Below are positions 40,931-64,000 of a stretch of DNA of 64,000 bases, piece by piece; the stretch's first letter is position 1; each line of letters begins with the position of its first letter. The notes under the pieces are model-generated. The model worked only from the letters and a program-made list of their open reading frames with translations, made no database searches and had not been told where the DNA came from. The stretch is from Alphaproteobacteria bacterium (GTDB lineage: Bacteria > Pseudomonadota > Alphaproteobacteria > JABAAW01 > JAHZMA01), in assembly GCA_965206365.1 (NCBI GenBank), contig CBDBJL010000004.1:141144-205143 (forward strand), given 5' to 3'. The position numbers were made by a program, and so were the translations under genes.

Positions 40931-41028
40931 GGCGGCAATATCGCGTACCTTATCAATATTATAAATATTAGGATATTTAGAATCTTCAGATTTCTTTTTT
41001 ACTGCATTGTTAAATGAAAGATGGTATG

Positions 41029-41340
41029 CTTTAAGGTGGCAGTGATGTGCGACTATCTGCGAAGTGCTACGATATGGTGCGATGAGGTTGATTCCTGAAT
41101 AGATATTAAACTGCTATAATTACCTATAAATGCTTATAAACAAGGCTTCTAAGCTGTAAGGCTTGGTTTAAGATTATTCATAAACTGCCATAAAACGTGC
41201 TTCAAGTGGCTTATTTTTTTGCTTTTGCAACATGGCAGTCTCGAAATTTAGAAAACTAAAAAAAAACTTTTAAACCCTATATTTTAGGGTTTTGATTTCT
41301 AACATGGCAGTCGAAATCATCTTAAGGTGGCAGTTTAATT
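41029..41340. repeat. cluster of short direct repeats with a CGAAA core (candidate Mu-type transposase-binding sites at the prophage terminus)
   Basis: Exact 13-mer ttaaggtggcagt at 41029 and 41321; exact 12-mer aacatggcagtc at 41229 and 41301, both followed by (t)cgaaat; inverted copy aactgccat at 41183. Confidence 0.4.
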
Positions 41341-41350
41341 CTGATTAATC

Positions 41351-42100
41351 CTAAACATTTTCGGGATATTCATCCCAAGTTTTTCCGCGCCATTTACGAC
41401 CTGTTTTTTTCTTATTAACACCGCCCCATTGCTTAAAGAAGAAGGCTGTGCCAGTTTTTCGGCATAATGCTTCAATTTCAGCTATCCATTCATCATCCAT
41501 ATTTCGTGCCGAAGGGCCGCTCTCGCCACCTATAATTGCCCAATCAATCGCCGTTAAATTAGCCTTAGATACCGAAGCTAATAAGGGCTCAAACGATACA
41601 AAGCGGATGGTTGCCGGCATAAGTCGTAATTCATCAAGCCTGTCAATATAAGCGTTGCTCTCAACACTTACGCCGATCCAGATATGCGCAGGCAATTGAT
41701 AATTATATTTCATCAAAAATTCTCTAGCGCGTTCCGGGCGTTTAGTTAAAATTTGAAATTCATGCCAATCGGCTTTCAGCATCGTATTAAATGCTTGTTT
41801 AATAAATTTATCGGGGACGGCTTCATAAAATAAATCCGACATAGAATTAACAAATATTTTCGCGGGTTTACGCCATTTTAGGGGTTGTGATAACAAATTT
41901 TCATCAAAACTGGCTTTTCCGGTCCAATTGGCTTTACCTTCACGTTTAACAGTGCCAATATAAAGTGGGTGTTGCATGGCTTGCAGGCGTTCTGCCATTC
42001 GAATTGCATAGCAATTTTTGCAACCTGGCGAAACCTTAAAGCAACCTTTCACTGGGTTCCATGTGCGGTCAGTCCATTCAATTTTGCTAATTTCACCCAT
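41351..42100 (-). CDS. phage Gp37/Gp68-family protein (DUF5131)
   Basis: N-terminal IEWTDRTWNPVKGC..SPGCKNCYA signature. Confidence 0.65.
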   Translation of the reverse strand: MGEISKIEWTDRTWNPVKGCFKVSPGCKNCYAIRMAERLQAMQHPLYIGTVKREGKANWTGKASFDENLLSQPLKWRKPAKIFVNSMSDLFYEAVPDKFIKQAFNTMLKADWHEFQILTKRPERAREFLMKYNYQLPAHIWIGVSVESNAYIDRLDELRLMPATIRFVSFEPLLASVSKANLTAIDWAIIGGESGPSARNMDDEWIAEIEALCRKTGTAFFFKQWGGVNKKKTGRKWRGKTWDEYPENV

Positions 42101-42103
42101 TTA

Positions 42104-42466
42104 TTACCTCTTATAATTATTTTTTAATTGATTAATTAACACTTTAATCGTTTGTTGATCATTATCAGAAAGTTTTTTTAAATCACGATACATTGCAACT
42201 AATCCAGAATCCTCATCAGAAGCATCAGGATTTTCACCAACCAAATCAGCTATTCCTACTTGAAAAAAGTCTGCCAATCTTTTGAGAAGGTCAAGTGACG
42301 GATTTTTTGCTTTGCCAGTCTCTAAATCCCAAATATGAGTTTTGGATGCACCTACCCTAGTCGCAACATCTTGAAGAGAAATAGATTTTTTAAGTCTTAA
42401 TTGTTTTAATCGCAATGCTAATGACACTTCTTTTAATTCGTAATCGGTATATTGTTCTCTATTCAT
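42104..42466 (-). CDS. XRE-family HTH transcriptional regulator
   Basis: LSLQDVATRVGASKTHIWDLETGK...PSLDLLKRLADFF, a classic HTH_3 pattern. Confidence 0.7.
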   Translation of the reverse strand: MNREQYTDYELKEVSLALRLKQLRLKKSISLQDVATRVGASKTHIWDLETGKAKNPSLDLLKRLADFFQVGIADLVGENPDASDEDSGLVAMYRDLKKLSDNDQQTIKVLINQLKNNYKR

Positions 42467-43076
42467 AATCGCTATCCTTTTCTAGCAATTTTCTACAAGG
42501 GGGAATCCATACAAGACTGGTATTTTTTTGTGGATTTTTCTCCCAAACAAACCACGCATAAGCTGTTGCGCTTTTAATTTTGCTATCAAGTCGCCCTTTT
42601 ACTAAAGGTACGCGTTCGGCAAATGGGGCAAAGATTGTGGGGGGTGTTTGAGAAAATAAACGGTTATATCGCCCTATAGATTCTGTAAAATTACCGCGAC
42701 AAAACATGGCAACGCCATCGGTGGCAAGCCCTAACGATTTTGAAATAAAACCCTCAGCTTTGTTAAAAGGGGGATTTGTAATTACCCATTGGGGCGGATG
42801 GCAATAAAAATCATCGCTTAAAAAATCTTTTACATTAGCTTTTTCATAGCCGTAATCGTGAATGTCGGCGGCATAGACATTTTCAAAATAATCCGCTAAG
42901 GTCTCCGCCATATACCCCCTGCCGCCAAGCACGCTTTTATTTGATAAAGTGCTATTTAATACATATTTAATCAGGGCGCGCGTTGCCCAGGGCGGGGTAG
43001 GAAAATCATCTAAGCCATCGCCAATTTCATGCCGTTGCGCCATTATTGCGTAGGATCCTTTGGGTATCATTTTCAA
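42459..43076 (-). CDS. phage Dam-type DNA N6-adenine methyltransferase (putative)
   Basis: NPPF motif (WVITNPPFNK) and N-terminal FPTPPWATRAL, resembling the phage Dam MTase family; adjacent to the C5 MTase gene. Confidence 0.5.
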   Translation of the reverse strand: MKMIPKGSYAIMAQRHEIGDGLDDFPTPPWATRALIKYVLNSTLSNKSVLGGRGYMAETLADYFENVYAADIHDYGYEKANVKDFLSDDFYCHPPQWVITNPPFNKAEGFISKSLGLATDGVAMFCRGNFTESIGRYNRLFSQTPPTIFAPFAERVPLVKGRLDSKIKSATAYAWFVWEKNPQKNTSLVWIPPCRKLLEKDSDYE

Positions 43077-43080
43077 ATCC

Positions 43081-43935
43081 TTAAATTAAAATTAATTGGT
43101 TGTTATTTTCGGTTTCATACTCAAGATTCTTGCAATGAATTTTCAAGAGTAAGCCACGCATATGCGCTTGCCAATGGCATAACGGAATTTCCGCAACTTC
43201 TAATTCTGTCCACCCTGTTGGCAAACCCATCATCCATTCGGTGAATTGAGGGTTTAAAATCATCTCTAACTTTTTGCCATTTTGGGGAGTCGAGTCTTGG
43301 CGCGAAAGGGGGCATCCATTCCACATGTGTGCGACTTGATCCCGCAAGGAGGCAGGCATTTTTCTTTCTAATCTCTTCTTGAAAGTTTCCTCGCTTAGCA
43401 CCCCCCCATCGCCTCTGTAGCTTTTATGGTGCGCCATAATAAATAATCGCTCTCTTTTGTGAGGCGCACCAAGCTCCTCCGCGCTGAACAAGCCAGCCGC
43501 AACTTTGTAACCCAAACATTGAAGATCTTTTGCGACATCGTAAAATCCATTAGATAAATGTTGGCGGACATTTTCAAAGAAGCAGATTTTTGGCTGAATT
43601 TCCCTGATAATTCTTGCGATTGCGTTCCACAAATAGGCGGGGTCGTTTTTGCCAAGTCGTCTACCTGCTGCGCTGAATGGCTGGCAGGGGTATCCGCCAG
43701 CAATGCAATCCACGATTCCACGCCATGGCTGGCAATCAAAGGTGGCAATATCCGCTCAAATAGGCGCGCAATCCAAGTTTCCTGCTTGCATTTGTTTTGC
43801 CAAAATTTCGCAGGCATATGTTTCCCTCTCCACGTAACATATAACGCGGCTGTTTGGCTTTGCCAATTTAATTCCGAGTTCGAGTCCGCCGATCCCGGAA
43901 CATATTGATAAAATTTTTGGGGAACAAAAATCCAC
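43081..43935 (-). pseudogene. DNA cytosine-5 methyltransferase with an in-frame TGA (complement 43756-43758) and a C7 tract (43391-43397)
   Basis: One frame carries motif I ICSGIGGLELG, motif III/IV DIATFDCQPW...GGYPCQPFSAAG, motif VI FFENV, motif VIII HKRERLF and a motif-IX-like EWMMGLPTGWT; the only interruption is a single TGA between motifs II and III; probable GTG start near 43935. Confidence 0.7.
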
Positions 43936-43938
43936 AAT

Positions 43939-44580
43939 TTAAATATCCTTTCGCAACCACTTTCCAAACCTGACGATTAATTTATCGAGGGTTTCATTAT
44001 CTAAATATCTATGGTTCATGCCGTAACCATTGCGGTCACACCAATTATCGAGTGCAAACCGGCTGGCATTGCTCTTCACTTTATCTTGCCAAAACAATTT
44101 TTCCCATTGCGCCCGCACGATGTAAATTCGTGGATTTTCATCGTCAATGAATTGCACTTTACCCTCGCGCGCCAGCATTGCTTTTAAGGCCTCAATGGCT
44201 TTATACGCCACTTGTGGGGTCATCCAATTTTCATGGTCAACCTTAATTTGCCTCTTTACAAAGGCGCGAATGGCATGATCGCTACGGTTTTCAACCACCC
44301 CTAACCAATATGCAGAAATCCAAAGCGCGCGCAATTTTTTCACAACCTCATTGTTTGGTAGGGTCGAGGTTGTTCCCCCCTTGCCAATAATCTCATCGAT
44401 AACCTTGTAAATTTGCCCTATTTGCATTTTGCCGGCAGAACTTGTATTTGTAATTCGTTTGTACAGTGCGCGCTTGCTGGCATCATCAATGCCATTATTG
44501 TTAATTTCGATGTGCAATTTAGCCAGGGCTTTGCGCTTTTCTGGGGAAGCTGGAGATTTTGCGGGTGTTTTAGCCATCAT
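43939..44580 (-). CDS. gemA: Mu gp16/GemA-like protein (DUF1018)
   Basis: LWISAYWLGVVENRSDHAIRAFVKRQ...IEALKAM aligns with the recalled Mu GemA pattern. Confidence 0.55.
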   Translation of the reverse strand: MMAKTPAKSPASPEKRKALAKLHIEINNNGIDDASKRALYKRITNTSSAGKMQIGQIYKVIDEIIGKGGTTSTLPNNEVVKKLRALWISAYWLGVVENRSDHAIRAFVKRQIKVDHENWMTPQVAYKAIEALKAMLAREGKVQFIDDENPRIYIVRAQWEKLFWQDKVKSNASRFALDNWCDRNGYGMNHRYLDNETLDKLIVRFGKWLRKDI

Positions 44581-45034
44581 TATTTCCTTTCAATATTGCG
44601 CCGATAGCAGAATAGCCGGCTTTATCGAGCCAGCTATCGCTGTGCGCGGGGTTGTTCATTAAACGCGCTGTTTTTAGCGCATCCAAACATAAAGCCACTT
44701 GTTGTGGCTTAATTTTTGCGCGTAAAATCACGCTCCACAGCTTGGCAATTTCGGCAAAATGCTGGTTAGGGTCGCCATAAATCGCCCGCGATTTCAGAGT
44801 TTCTGCTAAATCTTGGCAAAAATCCTTATCTAAGGGTTGCTTGGCGGGGGGCACAGAATGCTCCCTGCCTGTATTTAGTTGCTGGATTCTGGCTTTCGCC
44901 CATTTCGGGCAATCAATATTAACACCCGTATCATCAAGGGCATGTTGCCATTTATCATCTTCTTCCCGCTCATTAATAATTCGCGAGATTGCACGCGCCA
45001 AAAGATATTTTTTCAAATGAAATTCAGCTATCAT
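44570..45034 (-). CDS. hypothetical protein (possible helicase-associated)
   Basis: 154 aa, immediately downstream of dnaB in the same operon. Confidence 0.35.
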   Translation of the reverse strand: MIAEFHLKKYLLARAISRIINEREEDDKWQHALDDTGVNIDCPKWAKARIQQLNTGREHSVPPAKQPLDKDFCQDLAETLKSRAIYGDPNQHFAEIAKLWSVILRAKIKPQQVALCLDALKTARLMNNPAHSDSWLDKAGYSAIGAILKGNNDG

Positions 45035-46479
45035 TTTTTCTCTAAATTTTCAAAAAGGGTGTATTTTGGCTCAAAATATAACGCCACTTCGCCAATTGCG
45101 CCGTGGCGTTGTTTTTGCACCGATAGAACGGCTTTATTTTTTGAATTTATTAATAATTCATTATGTTTTTCCTGCCTAAGCGCAAATTTTGCATCACTTT
45201 CAACATCGCGTTGTTCGGGTGTTTTGCGTTCAAGATAATATTCAGCACGATACAAAAACATCACCACATCGGCATCTTGTTCAATTGCGCCAGAATCTCG
45301 CAAATCAGAAAGTTGGGGGATCGGCGGGTCGCGTTGCTCTACCGCGCGCGATAATTGCGATAATACCAAAACCGGAATATCTAATTCTTTAGCAAGGGCT
45401 TTTAAGCCTTGCGATATCGATGTAATTTCATTTACTCGTCCATCATATTTGCCGCCCGCTTTCATTAATTGCAAATAATCGATAACGATTAAATCTAAAC
45501 TTTGGCGGCGCATTAATCGCCTAGCCCGCTGCCTAATAATCGCCACATTTATGGCGGGTGTTTGGTCAATAAAAATGGGCATTTGGTCGATAATGGCGGC
45601 GGTTCTGGCCAGGGTAGAAAATCCACGCGCAGAGATATTGCCGCGGCGCATATCATCGCTGGCAATTTTACACGCGCCAGATAAAATTCGTGCCGTTAAT
45701 TGTTCGGCACTCATTTCCAGTGAAAACACGGCTACGCGTCCGCCTTCGATTTCTTCATTATCAATATTTTTAAATTTGCTAGCAACATTATAGGCAATAT
45801 TTAACGCTAGTGCGGTTTTGCCCATGCTGGGGCGGGCAGCTAAAATAATCAAATCGCTTTTATGCAGCCCGCCCAAAATTTTATCAATATCATAAAATCC
45901 GGTGCTAATGCCGCTAATACCACCTCCGCGTTTAATTGCTGCGCTAATATTTTGAATTGCTGAATGTAAATGGGTTTTAATATTAATTAATTTCGCGCCA
46001 TCTTCGCCTTTTTCCGCCAATTCGAACAGAGCAGTTTCTTGTTCCTCAAGAATTTCATTGCCGGTTTTAGTAACATCGCCAGATTGTGCAATTTCAACAT
46101 ATTGTTGATTTATTAAAATTAATTCGCGTTTTAAGGCAAGGCTGGCAAGCGTTTTGGCATATTGTCCAACAGAGATCATTGAAAATACATTATTCGCCAA
46201 AGTCTGCAAATAATTATCCCAATCAGCATCAAGATGTGGAATTTCTTTTAGCAAATAAGCCAATGTATCTTCGTTTGCAGTTAGCCCTTCAGTCACTAAT
46301 TTGGATATTTCCGTGAAAATAATACGATGAACGTCATGATAAAAATGGCTTGGCTGACTGATATCAACAATTTTTTCAAAAACCTTATTATTGCGCAAAA
46401 GCGCGCCTAGCAAAGCGGCTTCAATTTCGATGGAATAAGGCATGGCAGCAGGCGCAGGTTTTTTAAGATAATCAGCCAT
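45031..46479 (-). CDS. dnaB: DnaB-family replicative DNA helicase
   Basis: N-terminal DnaB domain and RecA-like core with Walker A ARPSMGKTALAL; 482 aa. Confidence 0.9.
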   Translation of the reverse strand: MADYLKKPAPAAMPYSIEIEAALLGALLRNNKVFEKIVDISQPSHFYHDVHRIIFTEISKLVTEGLTANEDTLAYLLKEIPHLDADWDNYLQTLANNVFSMISVGQYAKTLASLALKRELILINQQYVEIAQSGDVTKTGNEILEEQETALFELAEKGEDGAKLINIKTHLHSAIQNISAAIKRGGGISGISTGFYDIDKILGGLHKSDLIILAARPSMGKTALALNIAYNVASKFKNIDNEEIEGGRVAVFSLEMSAEQLTARILSGACKIASDDMRRGNISARGFSTLARTAAIIDQMPIFIDQTPAINVAIIRQRARRLMRRQSLDLIVIDYLQLMKAGGKYDGRVNEITSISQGLKALAKELDIPVLVLSQLSRAVEQRDPPIPQLSDLRDSGAIEQDADVVMFLYRAEYYLERKTPEQRDVESDAKFALRQEKHNELLINSKNKAVLSVQKQRHGAIGEVALYFEPKYTLFENLEKK

Positions 46480-46993
46480 TAATCAACGCATCTTCTTTTA
46501 CTTCGATGGCGAAAGTCTCACCAACTGATTTAATCGTAACCCCTGTAATTTCGCGGGCGCGTTCAGGGTTCGCCAGCATGGCATCTTTATCTATTTCTTG
46601 CTTGCTACGGATAAAATCTATATAGCCTGCACCCCTTAAAGCGGCGATAACTTTGGCAGCATTAGTTACCCTAACGCTTGGCGGTGCGGTCCGCCAGTAA
46701 ACCATGCCGGCAATCAAATCGGCATGTTTAACTTTGCCGCCACCGGTTAAATCATGGCGGTTGGTTTCGCACCAAGCCTGAATGGCTGACTCTAATTGCG
46801 CCATGCGTTCGCGGGCGTGGGTAGTTTTCTCGGCACTCTCTTCGCGCGCAGCGGCGATTAAATCATTCATGTGAGTTTCTTCACGTGTAACTTCGCGTTG
46901 GCAATTGCCAAGTTCAGTGATCATCGCAATGCACTCATCTTTTGATTGCGGCGCGGGAATCGCCAATGCTTTGGTTTTTTTAGGTTTAGCCAT
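46472..46993 (-). CDS. gam: Mu Gam-like DNA-end-binding protein
   Basis: Strong match to recalled Mu Gam (MAKP.K..., EMND, WCE.NR..LT.GGKVK, PPSV, FIR.KQEI.K.A.L, GVTIKSG.E.F.I). Confidence 0.85.
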   Translation of the reverse strand: MAKPKKTKALAIPAPQSKDECIAMITELGNCQREVTREETHMNDLIAAAREESAEKTTHARERMAQLESAIQAWCETNRHDLTGGGKVKHADLIAGMVYWRTAPPSVRVTNAAKVIAALRGAGYIDFIRSKQEIDKDAMLANPERAREITGVTIKSVGETFAIEVKEDALING

Positions 46994-47028: not shown

Positions 47029-47232
47029 TTATTTTGCAGTATCCTGCATTTTGTTTAAAATTTGCATGAAGGTTTCTTCCTGCACCTTGGCAACCAAGGC
47101 TAAATTTCGTAAATCCATGGCAATATCTAAAGTTTCTTGTTTTGAAACAAAGCCATTTTCATGTGCAAGCTGGTCCATCAAATCGGCATATTTTGTTAAG
47201 GTTTTAAATAAAAGTTGCGGATCAGCCATCAC
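47029..47232 (-). CDS. small hypothetical protein
   Basis: 67-aa ORF in the early operon. Confidence 0.3.
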   Translation of the reverse strand: MMADPQLLFKTLTKYADLMDQLAHENGFVSKQETLDIAMDLRNLALVAKVQEETFMQILNKMQDTAK

Positions 47233-47537
47233 GCGTCCTCCCTATTTGGGCAGATTTTGCAAGCATTAAAAAGCTGAACGCGTTGCGGCGAGGCAACGCT
47301 AAAACGTAGCTTTTGATTTTTGTTACAAGCCTCTATGCCGATTTTTCCCAAAACGGGGCAATAATTTTCACCATCCATTAAAATTTCTTGAACGCGATTT
47401 TTAACAGCATTTAGGTCGCCCTTATAATGACCCCCAAGCACCAGTGATATAGTTGCGCTAGAATAGCCAAGTTTTTTTGCCACTTTATTTTGGCTACTCC
47501 CCTTACACGCAGAGCGCAATATTTCAAGCCAATTCAT
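47229..47537 (-). CDS. HTH DNA-binding protein with C-terminal Cys-rich segment
   Basis: HTH (QNKVAKKLGYSSATISLVL) plus CPVLG...CNKNQ...CKICP. Confidence 0.45.
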   Translation of the reverse strand: MNWLEILRSACKGSSQNKVAKKLGYSSATISLVLGGHYKGDLNAVKNRVQEILMDGENYCPVLGKIGIEACNKNQKLRFSVASPQRVQLFNACKICPNREDA

Positions 47538-48099
47538 TAGCTTTGCCTTTCGTTCGCACCGCGATCATGTCGTTATTGTTGGGGTCAAATAACATGCCAT
47601 CGCTTCTAATCTCGGGGGGGTCGCCCCCCGTATTTTTAATTAATTGAATATTTTTATCAGGGCAATTTAAATATTCGCCCGTTTTTAGATCACGCAAATA
47701 ACGCATCATTGTGGTGCGGGGAATCTTCTTTTTTCGCCCAATATTAATAAGGCTAAAAAGCTTATCAACAGTGCAATTATTTAACATGCGCAAGCTCCGC
47801 CAAATTACCGCTTGCGCGCTCTCTTCAATGGGCGTGCCGTTTTGATCAAGATGCGGTGCTTTCGCACTGGGCGCAGTTAATTTCCAAATCACCATCCCTT
47901 TATGGGGGTGGTTCGGTAATTTGCCCAAGCGTTTAACTTTGCGATTTTTAGCAAATATTTGCAAATGTTCGTCAATGCTACGCTTGCGAATGGGGGTGAT
48001 GGCACTGAGATCGGGGATGGTAAATAATAATTTACCACCCTGCGTTACCTCTTGTATTGCTTGCCAGATAGCTTGATAGCCTTTTTCGGTGATAGCCAT
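47524..48099 (-). CDS. hypothetical early-region protein
   Basis: 191 aa; contains an in-frame cgggggggtcgccccccg palindrome (47608-47627). Confidence 0.4.
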   Translation of the reverse strand: MAITEKGYQAIWQAIQEVTQGGKLLFTIPDLSAITPIRKRSIDEHLQIFAKNRKVKRLGKLPNHPHKGMVIWKLTAPSAKAPHLDQNGTPIEESAQAVIWRSLRMLNNCTVDKLFSLINIGRKKKIPRTTMMRYLRDLKTGEYLNCPDKNIQLIKNTGGDPPEIRSDGMLFDPNNNDMIAVRTKGKANELA

Positions 48100-48104: not shown

Positions 48105-48947
48105 TTACCCTTTTAAACGCGCTTTTTCAAGCGCAACAGTGGTGGCAGATGGTTTTTTTACATTGCCATTTATATCAAGTTCTATTTTTTTACGCGCTAA
48201 GGGGGTGGTTACTTGTAAATCGATGGGTGATTTGCCATCAGCTGTTAAAGTAACTTTATTTAAGCCATTATTTTTGGCATGATTCCGCAAAAGTTCAATC
48301 GATGTTACTACGCGGCGTACTTGCCCGGTGGATTTTTCGTGGACGCGTTTCATTAATTCTGGGCAAATTGCAATATCTTTCGAGTATAATTTGGCTAATT
48401 CCTGGCAATCTTTTACAGTTACCCCTTGGGCAGGTTGAAATTTTAAAATCCTATTATGGAAACGCTCGCTTTCTTTTAGATTTTTTGGCAGATTTTCTTC
48501 ACCAATCAAAATAATCGGTGTTTTTGCGCCATCATGGATCTCACGAATGAGATCGCACATCTTTCTATTCACCAAATAATCAGCTTCATCAATTATTAAA
48601 ATTCGCTTTTCATAGCTTAAAGCCTTGATAATTTTTTTCACCAATTCGTGCAAAGTATCATTTTTTGGAAAATCGATATTTATGGCATCTAAAATTTGCT
48701 TGCACAAAACTTTAGGCGTCCAGCTCCAACCCACATGGATGTTGGCGGCACCATATTGATTTGCCCCGCAAGTTGCACTAAAGGTTTTGCCATAACCGCT
48801 AAAGCCGTGGAAAGTGGCAATTCCTGGCAGATGCGATGGGCGCGTTTTCAGCGTTTCAATCAATTGATTAAAGATTGTAATATTCCCCAAGGGTGCCATT
48901 CGCACCTCCTCGGGTGTTGTTAAAAATGTGGGGTTAATTTCAGTCAT
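48105..48947 (-). CDS. MuB-like AAA+ transposition ATPase
   Basis: Walker A GFSGYGKTFS, Walker B LIIDEAD; directly downstream of the MuA-like gene. Confidence 0.7.
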   Translation of the reverse strand: MTEINPTFLTTPEEVRMAPLGNITIFNQLIETLKTRPSHLPGIATFHGFSGYGKTFSATCGANQYGAANIHVGWSWTPKVLCKQILDAINIDFPKNDTLHELVKKIIKALSYEKRILIIDEADYLVNRKMCDLIREIHDGAKTPIILIGEENLPKNLKESERFHNRILKFQPAQGVTVKDCQELAKLYSKDIAICPELMKRVHEKSTGQVRRVVTSIELLRNHAKNNGLNKVTLTADGKSPIDLQVTTPLARKKIELDINGNVKKPSATTVALEKARLKG

Positions 48948-53952: not shown

Positions 53953-53985
53953 TATAATGCCAAAAACGCACAATGCGTTTTTGGC
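53953..53985 (+). promoter_or_regulatory. TATAAT -10 element followed directly by a 12-bp-arm perfect palindrome (candidate autoregulatory operator)
   Basis: tataat 53953-53958; gccaaaaacgca-caa-tgcgtttttggc 53959-53985; the ATG of the S24 repressor is at 53995. Confidence 0.5.
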
Positions 53986-53994
53986 AAGAATAAG

Positions 53995-54987: not shown

Positions 54988-55047
54988 GATGCACCTGCGG
55001 AGATCATTTCCGCAGGAAGGTGAGCATGGAACTTATAGAGATTCAAA

Positions 55048-55575: not shown

Positions 55576-55654
55576 TTCACGTTGGCTAAACCCTAATGTT
55601 TTGCGTATTTTTTGATAATTTATTTTATTTTTCCTATGGTATCGTTAAAAATAA

Positions 55655-55690
55655 TATCCACTAAAAATAAAGGGGGATGCTACTACCCCC
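55655..55690. terminator. GC hairpin flanked by T/A runs (bidirectional terminator-like)
   Basis: aaagggggatgctactacccccctttttt between the two minus-strand hub genes. Confidence 0.4.
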
Positions 55691-55710
55691 CTTTTTTCGG
55701 ATGATGTAAA

Positions 55711-56640: not shown

Positions 56641-56673
56641 CAGGTTCAGCTAGATGCCTTGCTGATGATTTTA

Positions 56674-56696
56674 ATATAGGGCATTATGCCCTATAT
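56674..56696. promoter_or_regulatory. 11-bp-arm perfect palindrome containing the ATATAGGG motif (candidate operator)
   Basis: atatagggcat-t-atgccctatat; related TATAGG motifs at 53875-53881, 53908-53916 and 41272-41291. Confidence 0.45.
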
Positions 56697-56755
56697 TGTC
56701 AACAGTAAAATTCAATAAAAATATCTTTTTTCAAAAAAAAGTGCTTTTAGATGAT

Positions 56756-56784
56756 TTGACAAGCCCGCAAGCCATTGCTAGAAT
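56756..56784 (+). promoter_or_regulatory. sigma-70-type promoter TTGACA-17-TAGAAT for the Mor/C-like gene
   Basis: ttgaca 56756-56761, 17-nt spacer, tagaat 56779-56784; predicted start site at or near the ATG (short or no leader). Confidence 0.5.
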
Positions 56785-56790
56785 CAAAAG

Positions 56791-57156
56791 ATGATTCCCC
56801 TATACACAGAAATGGCTAATTTGCTTGGCGAAAATGATGCGCGCCAGATTATTCAACGGTTGGGCGGGAATCGCTTTTATGTGCCGTTTCCAAAAAATCT
56901 AACGCGCAATCATAAATTATCGCAAAAGCTAGGGTTTCACCGTGCCAAGCGATTTTGCAAAGCCTTTGCTGGCGATATTTTAGATATTCCCAAAGCCCCC
57001 GGCATTAGAGCATCGCAATTAGTGGCGGTGTTGGATCGTGCAGGTTACGATTCTGCTGAAATCGCGTGGTTGGCAGGCATGGATCGCAAACATATCTGCC
57101 AAATCTTAGCGATGCCTCAGCGCAAATTTTCAAGTGATTTTTCCCCTAAAATTTGA
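56791..57156 (+). CDS. Mor/C-family late transcription activator
   Basis: IIQRLGGNRFYVPFP matches the Mor-family GG..YIP core. Confidence 0.6.
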   Translation: MIPLYTEMANLLGENDARQIIQRLGGNRFYVPFPKNLTRNHKLSQKLGFHRAKRFCKAFAGDILDIPKAPGIRASQLVAVLDRAGYDSAEIAWLAGMDRKHICQILAMPQRKFSSDFSPKI

Positions 57157-57207: not shown

Positions 57208-57729
57208 ATGATTCCACATGCTGACATCCTTAAAAAGAACCTGCCGGATGGGCAGATTTGGCAGGTCGAAACCGACCCTCTGCTAAGCCATATTATTGCC
57301 AATTTAGGTAGTACATTAGATGCTGCACAAACGCGAATTAATCAGCTAAAATTTGAAATGTCGCCCCTTACAGCGAACGATCTTTTAGCTGATTGGGAAG
57401 CCGATGCTGGCATACCCGATTATTGCTTTCCGCTAGCAAAAACAGATGATGAGCGCGGGTTTGTTTTACGGCGCAAAATTTTAGAACGGCAACCCACCAC
57501 CAAGGCTGGCATTGGGGCTGAACTTGCTAAAATCGATATTGCGCTAAGTGATGCGCGTGGGCAATGCACGGTTACTTTGCCTGCCACAAATAAAATCTAT
57601 GCGCGTTGCGCACGATCGCGTTGCGGCAATGATCGGTTGTTACAATATTCGTCAGGTGAGCATGTAAAATGTTGGTTAAAGCGCATATTACCAGCGCATA
57701 TTTTCATAAAATTTAAGGCAAAAATCTAA
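57208..57729 (+). CDS. hypothetical late protein
   Basis: 173 aa; first gene after the activator. Confidence 0.4.
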   Translation: MIPHADILKKNLPDGQIWQVETDPLLSHIIANLGSTLDAAQTRINQLKFEMSPLTANDLLADWEADAGIPDYCFPLAKTDDERGFVLRRKILERQPTTKAGIGAELAKIDIALSDARGQCTVTLPATNKIYARCARSRCGNDRLLQYSSGEHVKCWLKRILPAHIFIKFKAKI

Positions 57730-58181
57730 TGTATTTATCTGACCATTTTAATGTGTCTGAAGCTGAAAAAAGCCAAACAGCCATTCGCCAGGGCATCGAT
57801 AATTCTGTGCCTAAAGCATTGTATGAAAATTTGAAATTGGTGGCGAATAATATTTTAGAACCCATTCGCGATGAATATGGCGAGCCATTCTCACCACAAA
57901 GCTGGCATCGCTGCCTTGAATTAAATAATTTTATTGGCGGAGCAGAAAATAGTTTCCACCTGTTAGGGCTTGCCGTGGATATTGAGCTGTTAGGCTGGGA
58001 TAATGCTGATTTTGCCAAATGGGCAAGCGAAAATCTGTATTACGATAAAATAATTTTAGAATATTACCAAAAAAACCAACCAAAATCTGGCTGGGTGCAT
58101 ATTCAATTAATGCCCAATCTTGATGATAATCGGATGAAATTTTTAACCTTTAACGGAATAAATTACGAGAGGATAATGTGA
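57729..58181 (+). CDS. peptidase M15-family endolysin
   Basis: SFHLLGLAVDIE metal-binding His/Asp pattern. Confidence 0.65.
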   Translation: MYLSDHFNVSEAEKSQTAIRQGIDNSVPKALYENLKLVANNILEPIRDEYGEPFSPQSWHRCLELNNFIGGAENSFHLLGLAVDIELLGWDNADFAKWASENLYYDKIILEYYQKNQPKSGWVHIQLMPNLDDNRMKFLTFNGINYERIM

Positions 58182-58300
58182 TGATGCATAATTTAATATG
58201 TAAAGGGGGGCATTATAAACAAGGGGGCGCGGAATGCCTAATCGGCATAGCCCCCTTGACCCCCGCTCCTGTCTCTTACAACAAGGCGGCGCACCCCCCT
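58180..58300. repeat. G/C-armed palindromic element (intergenic copy)
   Basis: gtgatgatgcat...aaaggggggcattataaacaagggggcgcggaatgcctaatcggcatagccccctt...ggcggcgcaccccccttat. Confidence 0.5.
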
Positions 58301-58330
58301 TATAAATATAATCATGAAAGGATTATTTAA

Positions 58331-58702
58331 ATGTTTGCAAAAACCATTGCCAAAACTGCAGGTGAAATTGCAGGCAAATATTTTGATAGCAAAAGCAAGG
58401 GGGCTCAGCTTGCTAGCGAGATTGAAAACGCTTTAATTACGGCGCAAAGCCAGGTGATTATTGCCGAGGCTAAGGGGGGTTGGTTGCAACGCAGCTGGCG
58501 ACCATTATTAATGCTAACGGCAATAATCATCATCTTTAATAATTACGTTATCTTGCCTTATGCGCGCGCATTTGGGCTAGATTTACCGTTGCTAGAATTA
58601 CCGGCTGGGCTGTGGGCTTTGCTGACCACAGGGGTTGGTGGTTACGTAGTGGGGCGCAGTGCCGAGAAAATGCTGCCAAATATTCGTGGTGGTAATGAAT
58701 AA
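58331..58702 (+). CDS. membrane protein, holin-like
   Basis: Two hydrophobic helices after an amphipathic N-terminus; follows the endolysin. Confidence 0.4.
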   Translation: MFAKTIAKTAGEIAGKYFDSKSKGAQLASEIENALITAQSQVIIAEAKGGWLQRSWRPLLMLTAIIIIFNNYVILPYARAFGLDLPLLELPAGLWALLTTGVGGYVVGRSAEKMLPNIRGGNE

Positions 58703-59025
58703 TGGATAATTTTTTAGATTTGCTTCGCTATTTGTGGGCACCCTTGATGGCGTTTTTTGGGTGGGCTTTTTGGTCGTTCAAAAAAGCCACAATTTCGCGC
58801 GATGAGGTAAATGAAATGATGCGCGGCATGACAGAGCGCGATCGCCGCATCGCAAAGCTTGAAGCACAAGTTGCCACAAAAGAAGATGTTGCCGAACTTC
58901 GCAACGAAATTCATCAAAATCAATTAAAAATCACCGCATCCGATGTGCGCCAAGATACGCAATTAACAAGTATCGTTCACGCGCTTGCGCGTGTAGAAAA
59001 TTATCTATTGGAAAAAACAAAATGA
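58702..59025 (+). CDS. N-terminal transmembrane plus coiled-coil protein (spanin/DUF2730-like)
   Basis: TM helix LWAPLMAFFGWAFWSF then coiled-coil; ATGA overlap with the upstream gene. Confidence 0.4.
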   Translation: MDNFLDLLRYLWAPLMAFFGWAFWSFKKATISRDEVNEMMRGMTERDRRIAKLEAQVATKEDVAELRNEIHQNQLKITASDVRQDTQLTSIVHALARVENYLLEKTK

Positions 59026-59315
59026 ATTATCATGATTTTATCACCGAAGATTTGCGATTATGTTTTTTAAAAATGTTACAGCTCGCCCCCACCCAAACGC
59101 TAAATAATCAGGTGATGGCAACGGCTTTATTCAGGATGGGCTTTAATTTGCCCACGCCCAAAATCCATTCGGTGGCAAGCTGGCTTGCCGATGCCGATTG
59201 CATTCGCATCGAAACTTTATCGCCCTTATTTATCTATCACCTTACCGCGCAAGGGGGTGATATTGCCGATGGCAAAAGCCATATGCCCGGCATTGCCAAA
59301 ATCGTAAATTTTTAA
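59022..59315 (+). CDS. hypothetical protein (Mu gp26-like position)
   Basis: 97 aa, translationally coupled to neighbours. Confidence 0.35.
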   Translation: MNYHDFITEDLRLCFLKMLQLAPTQTLNNQVMATALFRMGFNLPTPKIHSVASWLADADCIRIETLSPLFIYHLTAQGGDIADGKSHMPGIAKIVNF

Positions 59316-59324
59316 AGTAAAATA

Positions 59325-59849
59325 ATGCCGAAATCTAGCATCGAAAAATTACCTGAAGAGATCCGCCAAGCCGGATTTGCGCTGTTAAGCCAAGGCAAAT
59401 CAATTAATGAGATAACCGCGCATCTTAACAAATTAGGCAGTGAAATCGGCACTGAAATTAGCAGATCTGCGGTTGGGCGGTGGACAAAATCTGCCCGCAA
59501 ATTAACTGAGGATTTGCGCAGATCGCGCGATATGGCGATTGGCATTGCCAATCAATTAGGCGAACAATCGGCAAATGATGCCACAACGCGCTTAATTAGT
59601 GAACAATTGCAAGATATAATGATGTGCATTTTATCTGATGCCGATGGCAATATGCCAACCAAAGATATCGAACGAATTGCCAAAGCCCAGCACAATATTA
59701 ATCTTGCGCTACGCGGTTCGCAGCAATTAATTACCGAAATCGAGGCACGATTAAAGAAAAAACAAGCTGATGCTTTAACCAAAGCCGAGAAATCTGGCGA
59801 TATGCAAGCCGATGCCACTATAATGGCAATGCAGATATTGGGAATTTAA
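59325..59849 (+). CDS. Mu gp27-like small terminase subunit (DUF3486)
   Basis: LPEEIRQAGFALLSQGKSINEI...SRSAVGRW pattern. Confidence 0.55.
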   Translation: MPKSSIEKLPEEIRQAGFALLSQGKSINEITAHLNKLGSEIGTEISRSAVGRWTKSARKLTEDLRRSRDMAIGIANQLGEQSANDATTRLISEQLQDIMMCILSDADGNMPTKDIERIAKAQHNINLALRGSQQLITEIEARLKKKQADALTKAEKSGDMQADATIMAMQILGI

Positions 59850-59850
59850 A

Positions 59851-61206
59851 ATGCCATCACCATTAATAAAATTTTTACCCTATCAACAAAAATGGCTAGA
59901 TGATGATTCTCGCTTCAAGATTGGTATGTTTGCCCGGCAAACCGGCAAAACATTCACAAATTCAGCGGCAATTGTTAAGGATTGTTTGCAACAGGAAACT
60001 GATGGTAAAACCGCGCGATGGGTGATTTTATCACGCGGTGAACGCCAAGCAAAAGAGATGATGGATACCGGAATTAAACCGATGGTGAAGGCGTTTTACG
60101 AACTTAAAAATGCCCAAATGCCTAAAATTTTGGAAAATAATTATAAAACTGAAAATGCCAATTATCGGGCTTTAGAAGTCGAGTTGCCCGGTGGCAGTAA
60201 AATCACCGCCTTGCCAGCAAATCCTGATACCGCCCGCGGTTTTTCGGCAAATGTATTTTTAGATGAATTTGCATTTCATCAAAATTCGCTGGCAATTTGG
60301 CAAGCGTTGTTTCCGGTAATTCCAAAGCCGGGGTTAAAAATTCGTATTGCTTCCACACCAAATGGCAAGGCAAATAAATTTTATGAATTAATGACTTCTA
60401 AAGATGATGAATGGTCGCGGCATATTGTTGATATTTATCAGGCGGTAAATATGGGATTAGATCGTGATTTAACCACGCTTAAAAAAGCTATTGGCGATGA
60501 AGATGCATGGGCGCAAGAATTTGAACTTGAATGGATGGATGAGGCGCATAGCTGGATTTCATTCGATTTAATCATGAGTTGCGAAACCAACACAATGCCT
60601 GCCATTACGCAAAAGCCATCGATATTTATGGGCATAGATGTTGCCATTCGTAAAGATTTATGGGTATTGGTTATTTTAGAAAAGCAAGGCGATGTTTTAT
60701 ATATGCGCGATATTATTGCAAAAAAAGGCATTAAATTTGCCCAGCAAGAACATATTTTAGCAACTGCCGTACAACAATATAAACCCACACACATTGCTAT
60801 TGATCAAACCGGCATGGGCGAACAAATCACCGAGCGCGCCAAGCAAGCTTACGGCGAAACCCGCGTTGAGGGCGTTTTATTTTCGGCACCCAAAAAATTA
60901 GATATGGCAAGCCTGATGAAGCAAAAATTTCAGGATCGGCGCATTCGCATTCCGGCGGGTGATCAAAAATTACGCGCAGATTTACATGCAATTAAAATGC
61001 AGCCTTCAATATCTGGCGCGCCGCGATTAGTGGCAGATGGCAAAACCGATGGGCATGCTGATCGGTTTTGGGCTATAGCCTTGGCAATCTCGGCAGCCGA
61101 AACCGCGCCATTTAACCCATATGGCTATCAAGGGGTGCGTGGAGCGGCATCTGATATTACCGGCAATACAGAATCCGTATGGCAACAAATGCAAGGATTT
61201 TGGTGA
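59851..61206 (+). CDS. Mu-type terminase large subunit
   Basis: N-terminal ATPase ARQTGKTF, 451 aa; position in the Mu-like head-gene order. Confidence 0.75.
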   Translation: MPSPLIKFLPYQQKWLDDDSRFKIGMFARQTGKTFTNSAAIVKDCLQQETDGKTARWVILSRGERQAKEMMDTGIKPMVKAFYELKNAQMPKILENNYKTENANYRALEVELPGGSKITALPANPDTARGFSANVFLDEFAFHQNSLAIWQALFPVIPKPGLKIRIASTPNGKANKFYELMTSKDDEWSRHIVDIYQAVNMGLDRDLTTLKKAIGDEDAWAQEFELEWMDEAHSWISFDLIMSCETNTMPAITQKPSIFMGIDVAIRKDLWVLVILEKQGDVLYMRDIIAKKGIKFAQQEHILATAVQQYKPTHIAIDQTGMGEQITERAKQAYGETRVEGVLFSAPKKLDMASLMKQKFQDRRIRIPAGDQKLRADLHAIKMQPSISGAPRLVADGKTDGHADRFWAIALAISAAETAPFNPYGYQGVRGAASDITGNTESVWQQMQGFW

Positions 61207-61348
61207 TGATGGCATCATTATTAGCATATTTTGCAAAACGCATTTTAAGCGGTTCTGGTAGCGATGGGCTATTTCTAGTTAAAATGCCAGCTTGCTTAAA
61301 AATACCCCGTTTAATTTTTTGCCTTTACCCGTTTAATGAAGGGCATGT

Positions 61349-62959
61349 TTGATGAAGAAACAAATCCAAAAACCCGAAATGCAAGAAATCGCCACCGCTG
61401 GCGGTTTAGACGATATTAGCCGGTATTATAGCGGTGCCCCGCACGATGCTGATTATCGGCAATCTGCGCTTGCCAACCAAGTTGGCAACGATGAGGCTTG
61501 GCACAAGGCTGCAGAATTTGCCCGTGCCGATGGGCAAGTAGCCGCCTGTATGGGGCAACGGCATCTTGCAGTTACCTCGTTCGCTTGGGAGGTGATACCG
61601 GGCGATGATAGTAAAATAGCGCAAGATGTGGCTGATTTTATTACCCAGCAATTTGAACGGATTCGCTTCAATGATATTTCAGAAAAATTATTATGGGCGC
61701 GTTTTTACGGGGCTTCAGTTGCCGAGGCATTATGGGGCATGGAAGGTAATAAAATAATTTTGCAAGATTTGCGGGTACGGAATCTAAAAAGATTTCATTT
61801 TACCCCCGGTGGCGATGCGCTTTTGCGCACCCATACAAACCCTAATGGGCAAATTGTGCCAGAAAATAAATTTATAATTTTGCGATCAGGCTCGCCTCAT
61901 TCTGATAATCCATTTGGCGAGGGGTTAGCAGATCACCTTTATTGGCCCGTGCGGTTGAAAAAGCTAGGGGTGGCAGAATGGACTTTGTTTTTAGAAAAAT
62001 TTGCCAGCCCCACCATCACCGGCAAATATCCGGCGAATGCCAGCCAAGATGAACGCGATATCTTGTTAAATATTGCCAAATCGGTACGCCGCGATACCGC
62101 TGCGGTGATGCCAGATTCTATGATGCTAGAGATTTTAGAAATCAGCAGGCGTGGCGATGGCGGCTATGTAACGTTTGCAGATTATATGGATAAAACTATC
62201 AGCAAAATTATTATTGGGCAAACAATGACCACCGACGATGGCGCATCGTTAAGCCAAGCCCAAGTGCATAAAGTGGTTGCGGATCGGATTATAAAAGCTG
62301 ATGCCGAATTAATTTGCGAAGGCTTAAATGATACCATTGTTAAATGGTTATGCGGGTGGAATTTTGCAAACGCGCCCCAGCCCACTTTGCGCCGCATTAT
62401 GCCCGAGCCATTTGATGAAAAGGCGCGCGCTGAAACTTTGGCAACGCTTTATAATATCGGCTTTAAGCCCGATTTAAACCGCATTCAAGAAGATTTTGGC
62501 GAAGGCTTTGCAGAGAGAGATTTAAGTGCAGGAGATTTTGGTAATAAAAACCCCCCGCCCACGCAATCTACAAAAAATAATTTTGCTGAAGCTAAAGAAA
62601 ATCCTGACCCCCCCTTAAAAGATAATGAGCGGGGGGATCTTAAGGGGGGGCATCGCAAGGGGTTGAGCTCGTCTTCAATCCCGAGAAGCGATGTCGCACC
62701 CCCCTTAATAAATAAGGATAATATCGATAATATTGTGGATTTGCTAGAAGAGGGGGATCGGCTAGCTTTTGCCGAAATGCTGAATCCCATGCGCAAAGCC
62801 TTAGCAAAAGCCAAAAGCTTTGATGATTTAAACCGGCGTTTAACGCGCCTTGAAGGCAAGGGCAAAATCAACAAATTAGGCAAATTGTTGCAAGCCGCCA
62901 CTGGCTTTGCCCATATTAAAGCCAGTGATGACATAAAGGATGATCCCCTTGAAAAGTAA
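61349..62959 (+). CDS. Mu gp29-like portal protein (DUF935), with an in-frame palindromic insertion near the C-terminus
   Basis: DUF935-like N-terminus; element 62606-62715 translates in frame (DPPLKDNERGDLKGGHRKGLSSSSIPRSDVAPPL). Confidence 0.75.
   Translation: MMKKQIQKPEMQEIATAGGLDDISRYYSGAPHDADYRQSALANQVGNDEAWHKAAEFARADGQVAACMGQRHLAVTSFAWEVIPGDDSKIAQDVADFITQQFERIRFNDISEKLLWARFYGASVAEALWGMEGNKIILQDLRVRNLKRFHFTPGGDALLRTHTNPNGQIVPENKFIILRSGSPHSDNPFGEGLADHLYWPVRLKKLGVAEWTLFLEKFASPTITGKYPANASQDERDILLNIAKSVRRDTAAVMPDSMMLEILEISRRGDGGYVTFADYMDKTISKIIIGQTMTTDDGASLSQAQVHKVVADRIIKADAELICEGLNDTIVKWLCGWNFANAPQPTLRRIMPEPFDEKARAETLATLYNIGFKPDLNRIQEDFGEGFAERDLSAGDFGNKNPPPTQSTKNNFAEAKENPDPPLKDNERGDLKGGHRKGLSSSSIPRSDVAPPLINKDNIDNIVDLLEEGDRLAFAEMLNPMRKALAKAKSFDDLNRRLTRLEGKGKINKLGKLLQAATGFAHIKASDDIKDDPLEK
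62606..62715. repeat. G6/C6 palindromic element inserted in frame in the portal gene
   Basis: ccccccccttaaaagataatgagcggggggatcttaagggggggcatcgcaagg...gagaagcgatgtcgcaccccccttaat. Confidence 0.65.
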
Positions 62960-63195
62960 TGATGCGGGGGGATCACAAGGGGGGATATCGCAAAGCATTG
63001 GGCGTACCGCCTCAATGTTGAGAAGCGATACCGCTCCCCCCTTGAAAAGTAATGATGCGGGGGGATCACAAGGGGGGATATCGCAAAGCATTGGGCGTAC
63101 CGCCTCAATGTTGAGAAGCGATACCGCTCCCCCCTTGAAAAGTAATGATGCGGGGGTCAAGGGGGTTATGCCGATTAGGCATTCCGCACCCCCTT
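62945..63195. repeat. tandem array (2 exact 93-bp units plus partial) of the same palindromic element between portal and F genes
   Basis: Unit gaaaagtaatgatgcggggggatcacaaggggggatatcgcaaagcattgggcgtaccgcctcaatgttgagaagcgataccgctccccccttg at 62951, 63044 and partially at 63137. Confidence 0.8.
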
Positions 63196-63202
63196 GTTAG
63201 AT

Positions 63203-64000
63203 ATGATGCGCACTTTCACCGATGCGGCTAACTTTCTAGCCCAAAAGCATAATATACCCTCGGGCGAATGGAGTGAAATTTGGCAACAACAGCACGATAC
63301 CGCCTTCACCGTTGCCGGGGTGATGAATGATGATCTGCTGGGTGATTTAAAAAATGCGGTAATTAAAGCCCAAGCAGCTGGCAAAACCTTAGAAGATTTC
63401 CGCGGCGAATTTGATGATATTATCGCCAAGCGGGGTTGGTTCACCGATAAATTAAAATCAGCGGGCTATAAAAGATGGCGGACTCGGGTTATCTACGATA
63501 CTAATTTGCGCCAAAGCTATAGCGCAGGCAAGCTTGCCCAAGCCAAAAGGCTAGATCGCAAATATGCGCGCTATGTGGCTATTCAAGATGATCGGGGGCG
63601 CAAAACCCACCAAGCTTGGCACGGCACAATTCTACCCATCGATGATCCGTGGTGGGATACCCACACCCCTATGAATGGTTGGGGGTGCCGCTGCTATGTA
63701 TCGTACCTTACCAAAGCGCAAGCGCAATTCTATTTGGGCGATCAGGATCCTGATGCCCAAATTGCCCCGCCGATCCAAATGCACAGCCAAAGCATCCGCC
63801 TGAAATCTGGCGAAGTAAAAATTGTTACAACCCCCAAAGGCATCTCGCCCGGTTTTAATTACAACCCCGGCGCATCCATTTATAATGCCAAAACTGGTGC
63901 GGTAACCAAGCTTGCCCCAAAAGTTGCCCCTGTAAAATCTACAGCCAATGTTGCGCAAAAAATTAAGCCGAAACCTAGTACAGCCTTACCGGCAGATAAG
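63203..64000 (+). CDS. Mu F-like head morphogenesis protein (3'-truncated by the window end)
   Basis: ORF open from ATG 63203 to the window end; sequence typical of the Phage_Mu_F family (NGWGCRCY); not in the ORF track because it has no stop codon in the window. Confidence 0.7.
   Translation, partial: MMRTFTDAANFLAQKHNIPSGEWSEIWQQQHDTAFTVAGVMNDDLLGDLKNAVIKAQAAGKTLEDFRGEFDDIIAKRGWFTDKLKSAGYKRWRTRVIYDTNLRQSYSAGKLAQAKRLDRKYARYVAIQDDRGRKTHQAWHGTILPIDDPWWDTHTPMNGWGCRCYVSYLTKAQAQFYLGDQDPDAQIAPPIQMHSQSIRLKSGEVKIVTTPKGISPGFNYNPGASIYNAKTGAVTKLAPKVAPVKSTANVAQKIKPKPSTALPADK

Follow-up and report, generated by a model that had tools for sequence, protein, structure and literature searches.

The 64,000-nucleotide (nt) stretch of alphaproteobacterial DNA analysed here, hereafter the window, carries in its right-hand part, from ~41,000 to 64,000 (~23 kb), what its gene content identifies as the visible part of a Mu-type transposable prophage. 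Gene families were assigned with Pfam and PHROGs to the ~40 open reading frames (ORFs) across positions 37,600–64,000, defence models were assigned with PADLOC, and RNAs with Rfam. The ORF map and the family matches divide the element into an early arm read leftward on the minus strand (from 53864 to 41351), a central hub with a repressor and cargo genes, and a late arm read rightward on the plus strand (from 56791). A preliminary description of this DNA had proposed a Mu-like prophage with arms diverging from a central regulatory region, and the gene content bears that proposal out; all the genes it named were recovered by Pfam and PHROGs in the places and orientations it gave them. It had also named att-site direct repeats at both ends together with an integrase as the signs that would speak for a site-specific phage instead of a transposable one. 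No site-specific integrase was found by Pfam or PHROGs among the ~40 ORFs, a result that covers the visible 23 kb of the element only.

Genes characteristic of Mu-like transposable phages (proposed 'Saltoviridae'), the group used to assess membership, occur in both arms. The early arm encodes a MuA-type DDE transposase of 727 amino acids (aa; 49027–51210), with an rve core (E = 1.2e-13), a Mu C-terminal domain (Mu-transpos_C, E = 1.2e-7) and a weak match to HTH_Tnp_Mu_1 (E = 6e-4). The invariant columns of its catalytic core are kept, and it has 225 homologues at E ≤ 1e-20. Adjoining it is the gene for a MuB-like AAA+ transposition ATPase (48105–48947; Pfam AAA_22, E = 4.5e-14; TniB, E = 3.4e-9); MuB homologues likewise adjoin the transposase in 154 of the 162 related transposase loci that we surveyed from genomes and IMG/VR. 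The accessory early and regulatory genes of such phages are represented by Gam, a double-strand end protection protein (46472–46993; Pfam Phage_Mu_Gam, E = 5.5e-33), by a GemA homologue (43939–44580; Pfam GemA, E = 1.9e-24), and, at the head of the late arm, by a Mor/C-family late transcription activator (56791–57156; phrog_836 'late transcriptional activator', E = 6.6e-14; weak match to Pfam Mor). The packaging and head module is also of Mu type. It comprises a gp27-like small terminase and the large terminase, TerL (59325–61206; Pfam Phage_Mu_Gp27, E = 7.5e-21, and Terminase_6N/6C), a Mu-type portal (61349–62959; Pfam Portal_Mu, E = 2.8e-89, residues 58–384), and a Mu F-like head morphogenesis protein that is cut by the end of the window (63203–64000; Phage_Mu_F, E = 3e-18; phrog_220, E = 2e-70). 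Homology of the portal to other portals stops near residue 384.

Read outward from the hub, the early arm begins with a first early gene, two small ORFs, a ParB-like gene and three small ORFs, which are followed by the transposase and MuB-like genes. Beyond these lie three small conserved genes, gam, a dnaB gene, and genes for a DUF6378 protein, GemA, a C5 methylase, an N6-type methylase, a helix-turn-helix (HTH) protein, and a DUF5131 protein.

The dnaB gene (45031–46479) encodes a full-length DnaB-family replicative helicase, as the preliminary description had stated: both the N-terminal domain (E = 3e-20) and the C-terminal RecA-like domain (Pfam DnaB_C, E = 3e-95) are complete, with Walker A and B motifs, the SQLSR motif and the arginine finger. 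The protein matches solved DnaB structures in the PDB at E = 1e-79. In an alignment with nine cellular alphaproteobacterial DnaBs it retains every column that is invariant among them, and it has the extended C-terminal segment common to the alphaproteobacterial DnaB consensus; judged by these features, the prophage DnaB looks functional. Its best homologues are alphaproteobacterial replicative helicases with 46–56 per cent identity; they include P0122 (56 per cent) and P0123 (49 per cent), the latter encoded in the canonical rpsF-rpsR-rplI-dnaB-alr context. At its start the gene shares 8 nt with the end of gam, and its stop likewise runs into the start of the DUF6378 gene. These tight overlaps and the cellular best matches together mark DnaB as an integrated member of the operon that came from a cellular genome, not as a helicase of a phage lineage, and its origin by capture from an alphaproteobacterial chromosome is the conclusion to which the homologues point.

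That DnaB is unusual cargo for such a phage, as had been suggested, is upheld by its distribution. The early operons of the 162 related transposase loci yielded no DnaB; the sole match, in L019, lies ~8 kb upstream and on the other strand. Conversely, no gene for MuA, MuB, Gam or GemA lies within 8 kb of any of the 80 best IMG/VR DnaB loci. The six isolated Mu-like genomes that we inspected also have no DnaB, and we found no precedent for DnaB in Mu-like phages in the literature, where mentions of DnaB concern lambda-like phages. To our knowledge, no described Mu-like phage encodes a replisome component.

The closest relatives of the prophage are the loci L001/L002 and L003 on European Nucleotide Archive (ENA) metagenome contigs, which share a subclade with it and have transposases with 47 and 41 per cent identity to that of the prophage, respectively. 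Both differ from the prophage in having a DnaA domain-IV protein by gam and no DnaB. The protein encoded next to DnaB in the prophage, of the DUF6378 family (44570–45034; Pfam, E = 1.3e-22), is 55 per cent identical (BLASTP) to the C-terminal half of L003:14473-15222, a DnaA_C–DUF6378 fusion. The N-terminal half of that fusion is a DnaA domain-IV HTH; in L001, a separate DnaA domain-IV protein adjoins gam. The subclade of L001, L003 and the window would thus carry modules derived from host replication in this part of the early arm, and the DnaA domain-IV proteins of the sister phages suggest a module that manipulates replication. The DUF6378 protein has no sequence match in the PDB, and a Foldseek search of the PDB with its AlphaFold model (predicted local distance difference test score, pLDDT, of 61) returned nothing below E = 0.9.

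The opposite orientation of the early and late arms had been regarded in the preliminary description as a departure from the plan of Mu, but the genome records of B3 and BcepMu show exactly such a layout. In the BcepMu record, the minus strand carries genes 1–16, among them those for Mor, GemA, the B ATPase and the transposase, and the plus strand carries those for the repressor, lysis, terminase, portal and F; the B3 record is arranged in the same way. This arm arrangement is stated in the literature (PMC8705779), and in KS10 the first ~17 kb are inverted relative to Mu (PMC2628397). The synteny comparison with B3 and BcepMu, a check proposed beforehand, therefore gave an identical arrangement of arms transcribed oppositely from a central regulatory region: a left arm that encodes GemA, the B ATPase and the transposase and is read toward the left end, a central repressor region, and a right arm with holin and endolysin, gp27-like protein, TerL, Mu portal and F. 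The layout is a long-known one and needs no new explanation.

At the level of individual genes, B3 and BcepMu differ from the prophage. Their transposases belong to another rve lineage (that of BcepMu is annotated as Tn552/IS1604-like), neither phage is found with the prophage transposase by tblastn at E ≤ 1e-5, and their TerLs have only 25–30 per cent identity to that of the prophage. In B3 and BcepMu, Mor closes the left arm, whereas it heads the late arm in the prophage and in L003. The gene upstream of the B3 and BcepMu transposases (DUF3102/gp10) is unrelated to the prophage ParB-like protein; homology of that protein to BcepMu gp10 was considered and rejected, as no similarity was found. 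Neither phage has DnaB. On the transposase, TerL and gp10 comparisons, the prophage thus falls outside Beetrevirus and Bcepmuvirus by sequence.

By sequence, the closest isolates are other Mu-like phages: for TerL, those of Rhodovulum, Pelagibaca, Thiobacimonas and Pasteurella (51–53 per cent identity), and for the transposase, HS6, RC1 and RS1 (26–31 per cent identity). The marine siphophages compared, namely Rhodovulum vB_RhkS_P1 and RS1, Rhodobacter RC1, vB_ThpS-P1 (Thiobacimonas) and vB_PeaS-P1 (Pelagibaca), have transposases with 21–30 per cent identity to that of the prophage. They show the same gene order, with ParB-like, MuA, MuB and homologues of the 191-aa and 102-aa early proteins on the one hand and DUF2730, gp27, TerL, portal and F on the other. 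Unlike the prophage, they are co-linear as Mu is: their repressor lies at the left end, and a single strand carries both early and late genes. They have no DnaB, DUF6378 or DUF5131; the co-linear phages with the order ParB-MuA-MuB are RhkS_P1, RS1 and HS6. The divergent arrangement is somewhat less usual for this lineage, in which the nearest isolated phages are all co-linear. Mu itself shares with the prophage the MuA-type transposase with its Mu C-terminal domain, the MuB-type ATPase, Gam, GemA, Mor/C, gp27, TerL, portal and F. It differs in being co-linear, in its Mu-specific repressor and Ner, in its myovirus tail and its gin and mom genes, and in having no helicase gene. Mu depends wholly on host DnaB, which is loaded through the PriA restart pathway.

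A late gene is visible in 39 of the 162 surveyed loci, and 37 of these are co-linear. The two divergent ones are L003, in which the layout corresponds gene for gene to that of the window, and L079, a Rhodopseudomonas locus. The distal early arm of L001 abuts host genes, which is possible only in a B3-type layout. The nearest relatives of the prophage thus make up a subclade of B3 type. Relative to the co-linear relatives, the layout can be derived by one inversion of a block composed of the repressor, the early operon and the genes downstream of the repressor, which would have lain between the left-end sites and Mor. A single inversion of this kind accounts for the position of Mor at the head of the late arm, for a repressor co-directional with the late genes, and for variable cargo in the hub; former left-end accessory genes would now be situated in the centre. 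On this account, MuA-type relatives of the co-linear marine Mu-like phages can also take the B3 layout.

Besides DnaB, the preliminary description had counted the ParB-like gene and the methylases as unusual cargo, a view that the survey does not sustain. The ParB-like gene (51913–52863; phrog_3264 'ParB-like partition protein', E = 3e-33; weak match to Pfam ParB_N) has counterparts directly upstream of the transposase in L001, L003, vB_RhkS_P1 (gp09), and 75 of the 162 loci. A ParB in related roseophages has been noted before (PMC5488378). The N6-adenine-type DNA methyltransferase (42459–43076; NPPF motif; phrog_799 'DNA methyltransferase', E = 1.7e-45) has homologues in 25 of the 162 loci, and the RS1 early region also has an annotated DNA methyltransferase. 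The C5-cytosine methyltransferase is rare (three of the 162 loci). The HTH regulator of 120 aa (42104–42466; Pfam HTH_31/HTH_3; PADLOC capH, E = 4e-23) and the DUF5131 protein (41351–42100; Pfam DUF5131, E = 4e-90; PADLOC candidate-defence models PDC-M41B/M30B, E = 2e-97) form a pair at the far end of the early arm, beside the methylases. Both recur in L003 and are rare elsewhere; L003 resembles the prophage in carrying the N6-methylase and DUF5131 genes at the far end of its early arm and in the order of its late arm. Taken together, the counts point to DnaB as the sole uncommon feature of the prophage, the ParB-like gene and the N6 methylase being ordinary for the lineage.

The probable left, early-arm end of the prophage (41003–41340) is marked by a cluster of repeated RTGGCAGT sites, at 41036 (+), 41184 (−), 41232 (+), 41304 (+) and 41327 (+). 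Five of the 12 matches in the window thus lie inside 300 bp just past the last early gene, where 3.1 are expected for the whole 64 kb, and this clustering is statistically unusual. An exact 13-mer, TTAAGGTGGCAGT, occurs at 41031 and again at 41322. The end of L001, where the early arm abuts host genes, reads TGATTCACGCAAACAGCGGAAT and agrees with the Mu att consensus at 14 of 19 positions; 35 nt inward of this Mu-consensus-like end lies GGTGGCAGTT; the 9-mer there, GGTGGCAGT, is oriented as it is in the window. By analogy, the shared 9-mer places the terminus in the window near 41,000. Our best guess for the left terminus is 40,985–41,035, possibly the TG at 41003. Its position agrees with those in B3 and BcepMu, the ends of which lie 124–365 bp past the last left-arm gene. 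A host-side ORF (40703–41113, with its end at 40703), for which the matches are the ORF itself and one 85-aa homologue, has no start codon where that homologue begins; this would fit, weakly, an insertion at ~40,985–41,030. The RTGGCAGT repeats, seen at one end of the element, are candidate transposase-binding sites. No convincing match to the Mu att consensus was found anywhere in the window. We also considered an empty insertion site, but the host-side 22-mer had three matches in metagenome contigs with no further similarity to the window, and these were attributed to chance.

The best explanation of the locus, to which we assign a probability of roughly 80 per cent, is a temperate Mu-type prophage of a marine-type alphaproteobacterium, organized like phage B3, with a captured DnaB and a layout that arose by one inversion. 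In the lysogen, the S24 repressor (53995–54663) would keep silent the early promoter that reads leftward out of the 130-bp divergent region beside the repressor gene. From what is known of the family, induction would lead to transcription of the early arm toward the left end; the MuA-type transposase would bind the end repeats and, together with the MuB-like ATPase, carry out replicative transposition, with Gam shielding DNA ends. The Mor/C-type activator would then turn on the lysis, terminase, portal and head genes, and integrated copies would be packaged by the headful. DnaB would most likely serve the phage's own replication or the takeover of host replication; it could provide, or commandeer, the replicative helicase for strand-transfer forks.

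Several points weigh against this interpretation. The left terminus is an approximate placement, and the repeated end sites are unlike the Mu att consensus. The window stops short of the right end (roughly 20 kb further on), and with it of the 5-bp target duplication and the tail module, which leaves transposition and the completeness of the prophage presumptive. The stop codon in the C5 methylase gene and the repeat elements within the transposase, ParB-like and portal genes, described below, may signal that the prophage is ageing. The link of DnaB to transposition is hypothetical, and the fold search with DUF6378 gave no lead.

The signs of ageing bear on the next most probable explanation, which we consider unlikely though worth weighing: a defective or domesticated Mu-like remnant that is immobile, with DnaB and the rest of the cargo either retained or in decay as host genes. 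The C5-cytosine DNA methyltransferase gene (43081–43935; Pfam DNA_methylase, E = 6e-27, profile positions 63–180 only) is interrupted by an in-frame TGA (43756–43758, minus strand) between motif I and motif IV, a single nonsense codon with no frameshift; motif I (CSGIGG) is encoded upstream of the TGA in the same frame. The TGA makes the gene either a pseudogene or one with a read-through site, or else is a sequencing error. The preliminary description was therefore correct about the presence of two DNA methylase genes, but the C5 one is split by a stop codon.

Palindromic repeat elements are a second such sign. Seven or eight copies of a G-run family are present in the 23-kb prophage and one in the other 41 kb of the window. 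Three of the prophage copies are in-frame insertions inside genes that would be essential, namely those for the transposase (aa 57–82), the ParB-like protein (aa 46–82) and the portal (aa 419–454). In the ParB-like protein, the element is a clean 33-aa insertion relative to L001, L003 and RhkS_P1 gp09 and splits the ParB N-terminal domain, and in the portal it lies in the variable C-terminal tail. A perfect tandem duplication of a 93-bp unit made of this element (2.3 copies, 100 per cent identical, 62945–63156) separates the portal stop from the F start. The tail half of the prophage, as noted, falls outside the inspected window. The prophage nevertheless has more than 30 intact, tightly packed genes with overlapping junctions, the element insertions within genes all keep the reading frame, and the catalytic-core columns of the transposase and the invariant residues of DnaB are kept, all of which favours a functional temperate phage over a remnant.

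Much less probable is a hybrid that would use its transposase for integration only and otherwise exist as a free replicon with its own DnaB machinery, the ParB-like and DnaA-related proteins serving an episomal stage. Such a life cycle would suit a DnaB of the kind typical for phages that replicate by means other than transposition (0 of the 80 best viral DnaB loci carry Mu genes), as well as the ParB-like gene and the DnaA domain-IV proteins of the relatives. However, searches of the early arm with Pfam, with PHROGs and for repeats revealed neither an initiator, a primase or a helicase loader nor an array of origin-like repeats. The prophage also keeps MuB, Gam, GemA and Mor together with packaging and head genes of Mu type, and the ParB-like gene is found equally in co-linear Mu-like phages that have no DnaB. 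The idea that the divergent layout is an artefact of two unrelated head-to-head elements or of mis-assembly at the hub, for which the lower G+C content of the hub orphan genes (36–37 per cent) might be cited, is effectively refuted by the gene-for-gene agreement with L003 on an independent metagenome contig, by the like arrangement of L079, and by the isolated phages B3 and BcepMu.

The complete dependence of Mu replication on host restart proteins, which load host DnaB at transposition forks, is textbook knowledge. The most economical view of the subclade is that its DnaB and DnaA modules would provide or commandeer the helicase that acts at transposition forks, or else disturb host initiation. 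A more specific model, which we put forward tentatively and regard as rather less likely than not to hold in full, is that the phage DnaB is loaded at strand-transfer forks, or titrates the host helicase and its loader, such that transposition becomes independent of, or dominant over, the host loading pathway; the DnaA domain-IV proteins of the sister phages would belong to the same takeover module. A Mu-type phage with a cellular-type DnaB, and with sister phages that have DnaA domain-IV proteins nearby, would make it possible to examine helicase recruitment to transposition forks in bacteria without the DnaC/DnaT system of Escherichia coli. DnaB is accordingly the part of this locus worth keeping in view; its value is moderate and hinges on experiments, and it would be greater if DnaB were to act at transposition forks.

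The remaining early genes also have counterparts in related phages. The first gene of the operon, in the Ner/Cro position (53484–53864; phrog_7669, E = 3.5e-24), has homologues that are likewise the first early gene in L001, L003 and phage RS1. Past the MuB-like gene, three small genes (47029–48099; phrog_2119, E = 1.5e-27; phrog_2030 'transcriptional regulator', E = 3e-20) encode proteins of 67, 102 and 191 aa. The latter two are widely conserved directly past MuB in relatives and have homologues in 144 and 40 of the 162 loci, respectively.

The hub consists of the repressor gene followed by three genes, up to 56640. Between the first early gene and the repressor gene lies a 130-bp region (53865–53994) with divergent early and repressor promoters, to which promoter-like sites TTGTCT-17-TATAAT (plus strand, 53930–53958) and TTGACT-17-TAAATT (minus strand, 53899–53871) correspond. 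Inverted TATAGGA/TCCTATA half-sites flank the early promoter (53874–53916) and are candidate operators; the candidate half-site ATATAGGA is not enriched in the window. The repressor is CI/LexA-like, with an HTH and an S24 peptidase domain (plus strand; Pfam Peptidase_S24, E = 1.7e-5; HTH_26), and homologues occupy the same position in L003 and L079. The three genes beyond it (54757–56640) encode a secreted-looking protein of 76 aa (plus strand) and proteins of 175 and 309 aa (minus strand), which match no Pfam, PHROG or PADLOC family apart from one meaningless weak match. Their G+C content is lower, at 36–37 per cent. In place of these three orphan genes, the hub of L003 (3312–4394, between the repressor and the late arm) has SLATT_1/DUF4231 and ThsB-like Toll/interleukin-1 receptor (TIR) genes, which suggests that the hub position is a hot-spot for defence cargo. 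A second divergent promoter region (56641–56790), between the 309-aa gene and mor, has the two best promoter-like sites of the region (11 of 12 positions each), and these are overlapped by a perfect palindrome, ATATAGGGCATTATGCCCTATAT (56674–56696). The palindrome and the half-sites at the early promoter could be operators shared by the repressor.

Between mor and the terminase genes, the late arm (57208–59315, plus strand) encodes a gp48-like protein, an M15 endolysin, a holin with three transmembrane segments, a DUF2730 protein and a 97-aa protein (Pfam Phage_Mu_Gp48, Peptidase_M15_3, GTA_holin_3TM and DUF2730; PHROGs), in an order identical to that in L003. The gene for the homologue of the Mu gp48 baseplate protein (57208–57729; Pfam, E = 4e-12; phrog_203, E = 1e-26) sits between those for the Mor-like protein and the endolysin, distant from tail genes, and its L003 homologue (2262–2780) has the same position. 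A 50-aa ORF at 58178–58330 is probably a copy of the repeat element and not a gene.

The elements of the G-run family are ~50–110 bp long and share the core GCGGGGGG-N2-5-AAGGGGGG..ATCGC ... GCGAT..CCCCCCTT. Copies are located at 37898–37975, 50965–51040, 52620–52728, 58170–58264 (minus strand), 62605–62710 and 62945–63200. The segment 63152–63200, after the 93-bp repeat, is a short variant copy, and a spurious ORF of 86 aa (62940–63200) is created there. The longer copies fold as long hairpins, with z-scores of −3.2 to −4.8, and short copies fold more weakly. Among the 253 loci that were fetched, similar elements were found in the host flank of L001 only (9470–10060). In Rickettsia, palindromic elements insert in frame into genes, and the G-run elements appear reminiscent of these. 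A review of miniature inverted-repeat transposable elements (PMC10969869) gives background.

To the left of the prophage, a host cluster (24585–37040) is dedicated to the use of trimethylamine-N-oxide (TMAO) and methylamine, with genes for TMAO demethylase, a betaine/choline-type ABC transporter, and GmaS-like and glutamate-synthase-like proteins. All of it is on the minus strand and has a strong negative GC skew (−0.20 to −0.35 per kb), which is unusual relative to the rest of the window. From there to the prophage (~37,100–41,000), the DNA is AT-rich (34–35 per cent G+C), unlike both the host cluster and the prophage in composition, and has several short, fragment-like ORFs with ankyrin repeats (38960–39220, 39826–40611); two ORFs within 37100–41000 begin with MAKLKV. 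A tRNA-Arg gene (24455–24530), the only match in the Rfam scan, is 16 kb from the prophage and does not adjoin it. The first 7 kb of the window (1–7102) are the end of a different phage-like element of higher G+C content (50–53 per cent), with genes for an RCC1-repeat protein, an NlpC/P60 peptidase and a GpJ-like tail-tip protein (756 aa), and an ORF (6656–7102) that is lysozyme-like by eye. A reading of the tail genes at 1–5600 as a second copy of the Mu-like prophage was rejected, as no end-motif cluster is present there. Between this element and the tRNA-Arg gene lies a defence-type island (7081–20854) with a type I restriction-modification system (HsdR, 7799–11002; HsdM, 13031–15547) and a protein that combines a RecB-like nuclease with an SF1 helicase (18446–20854).

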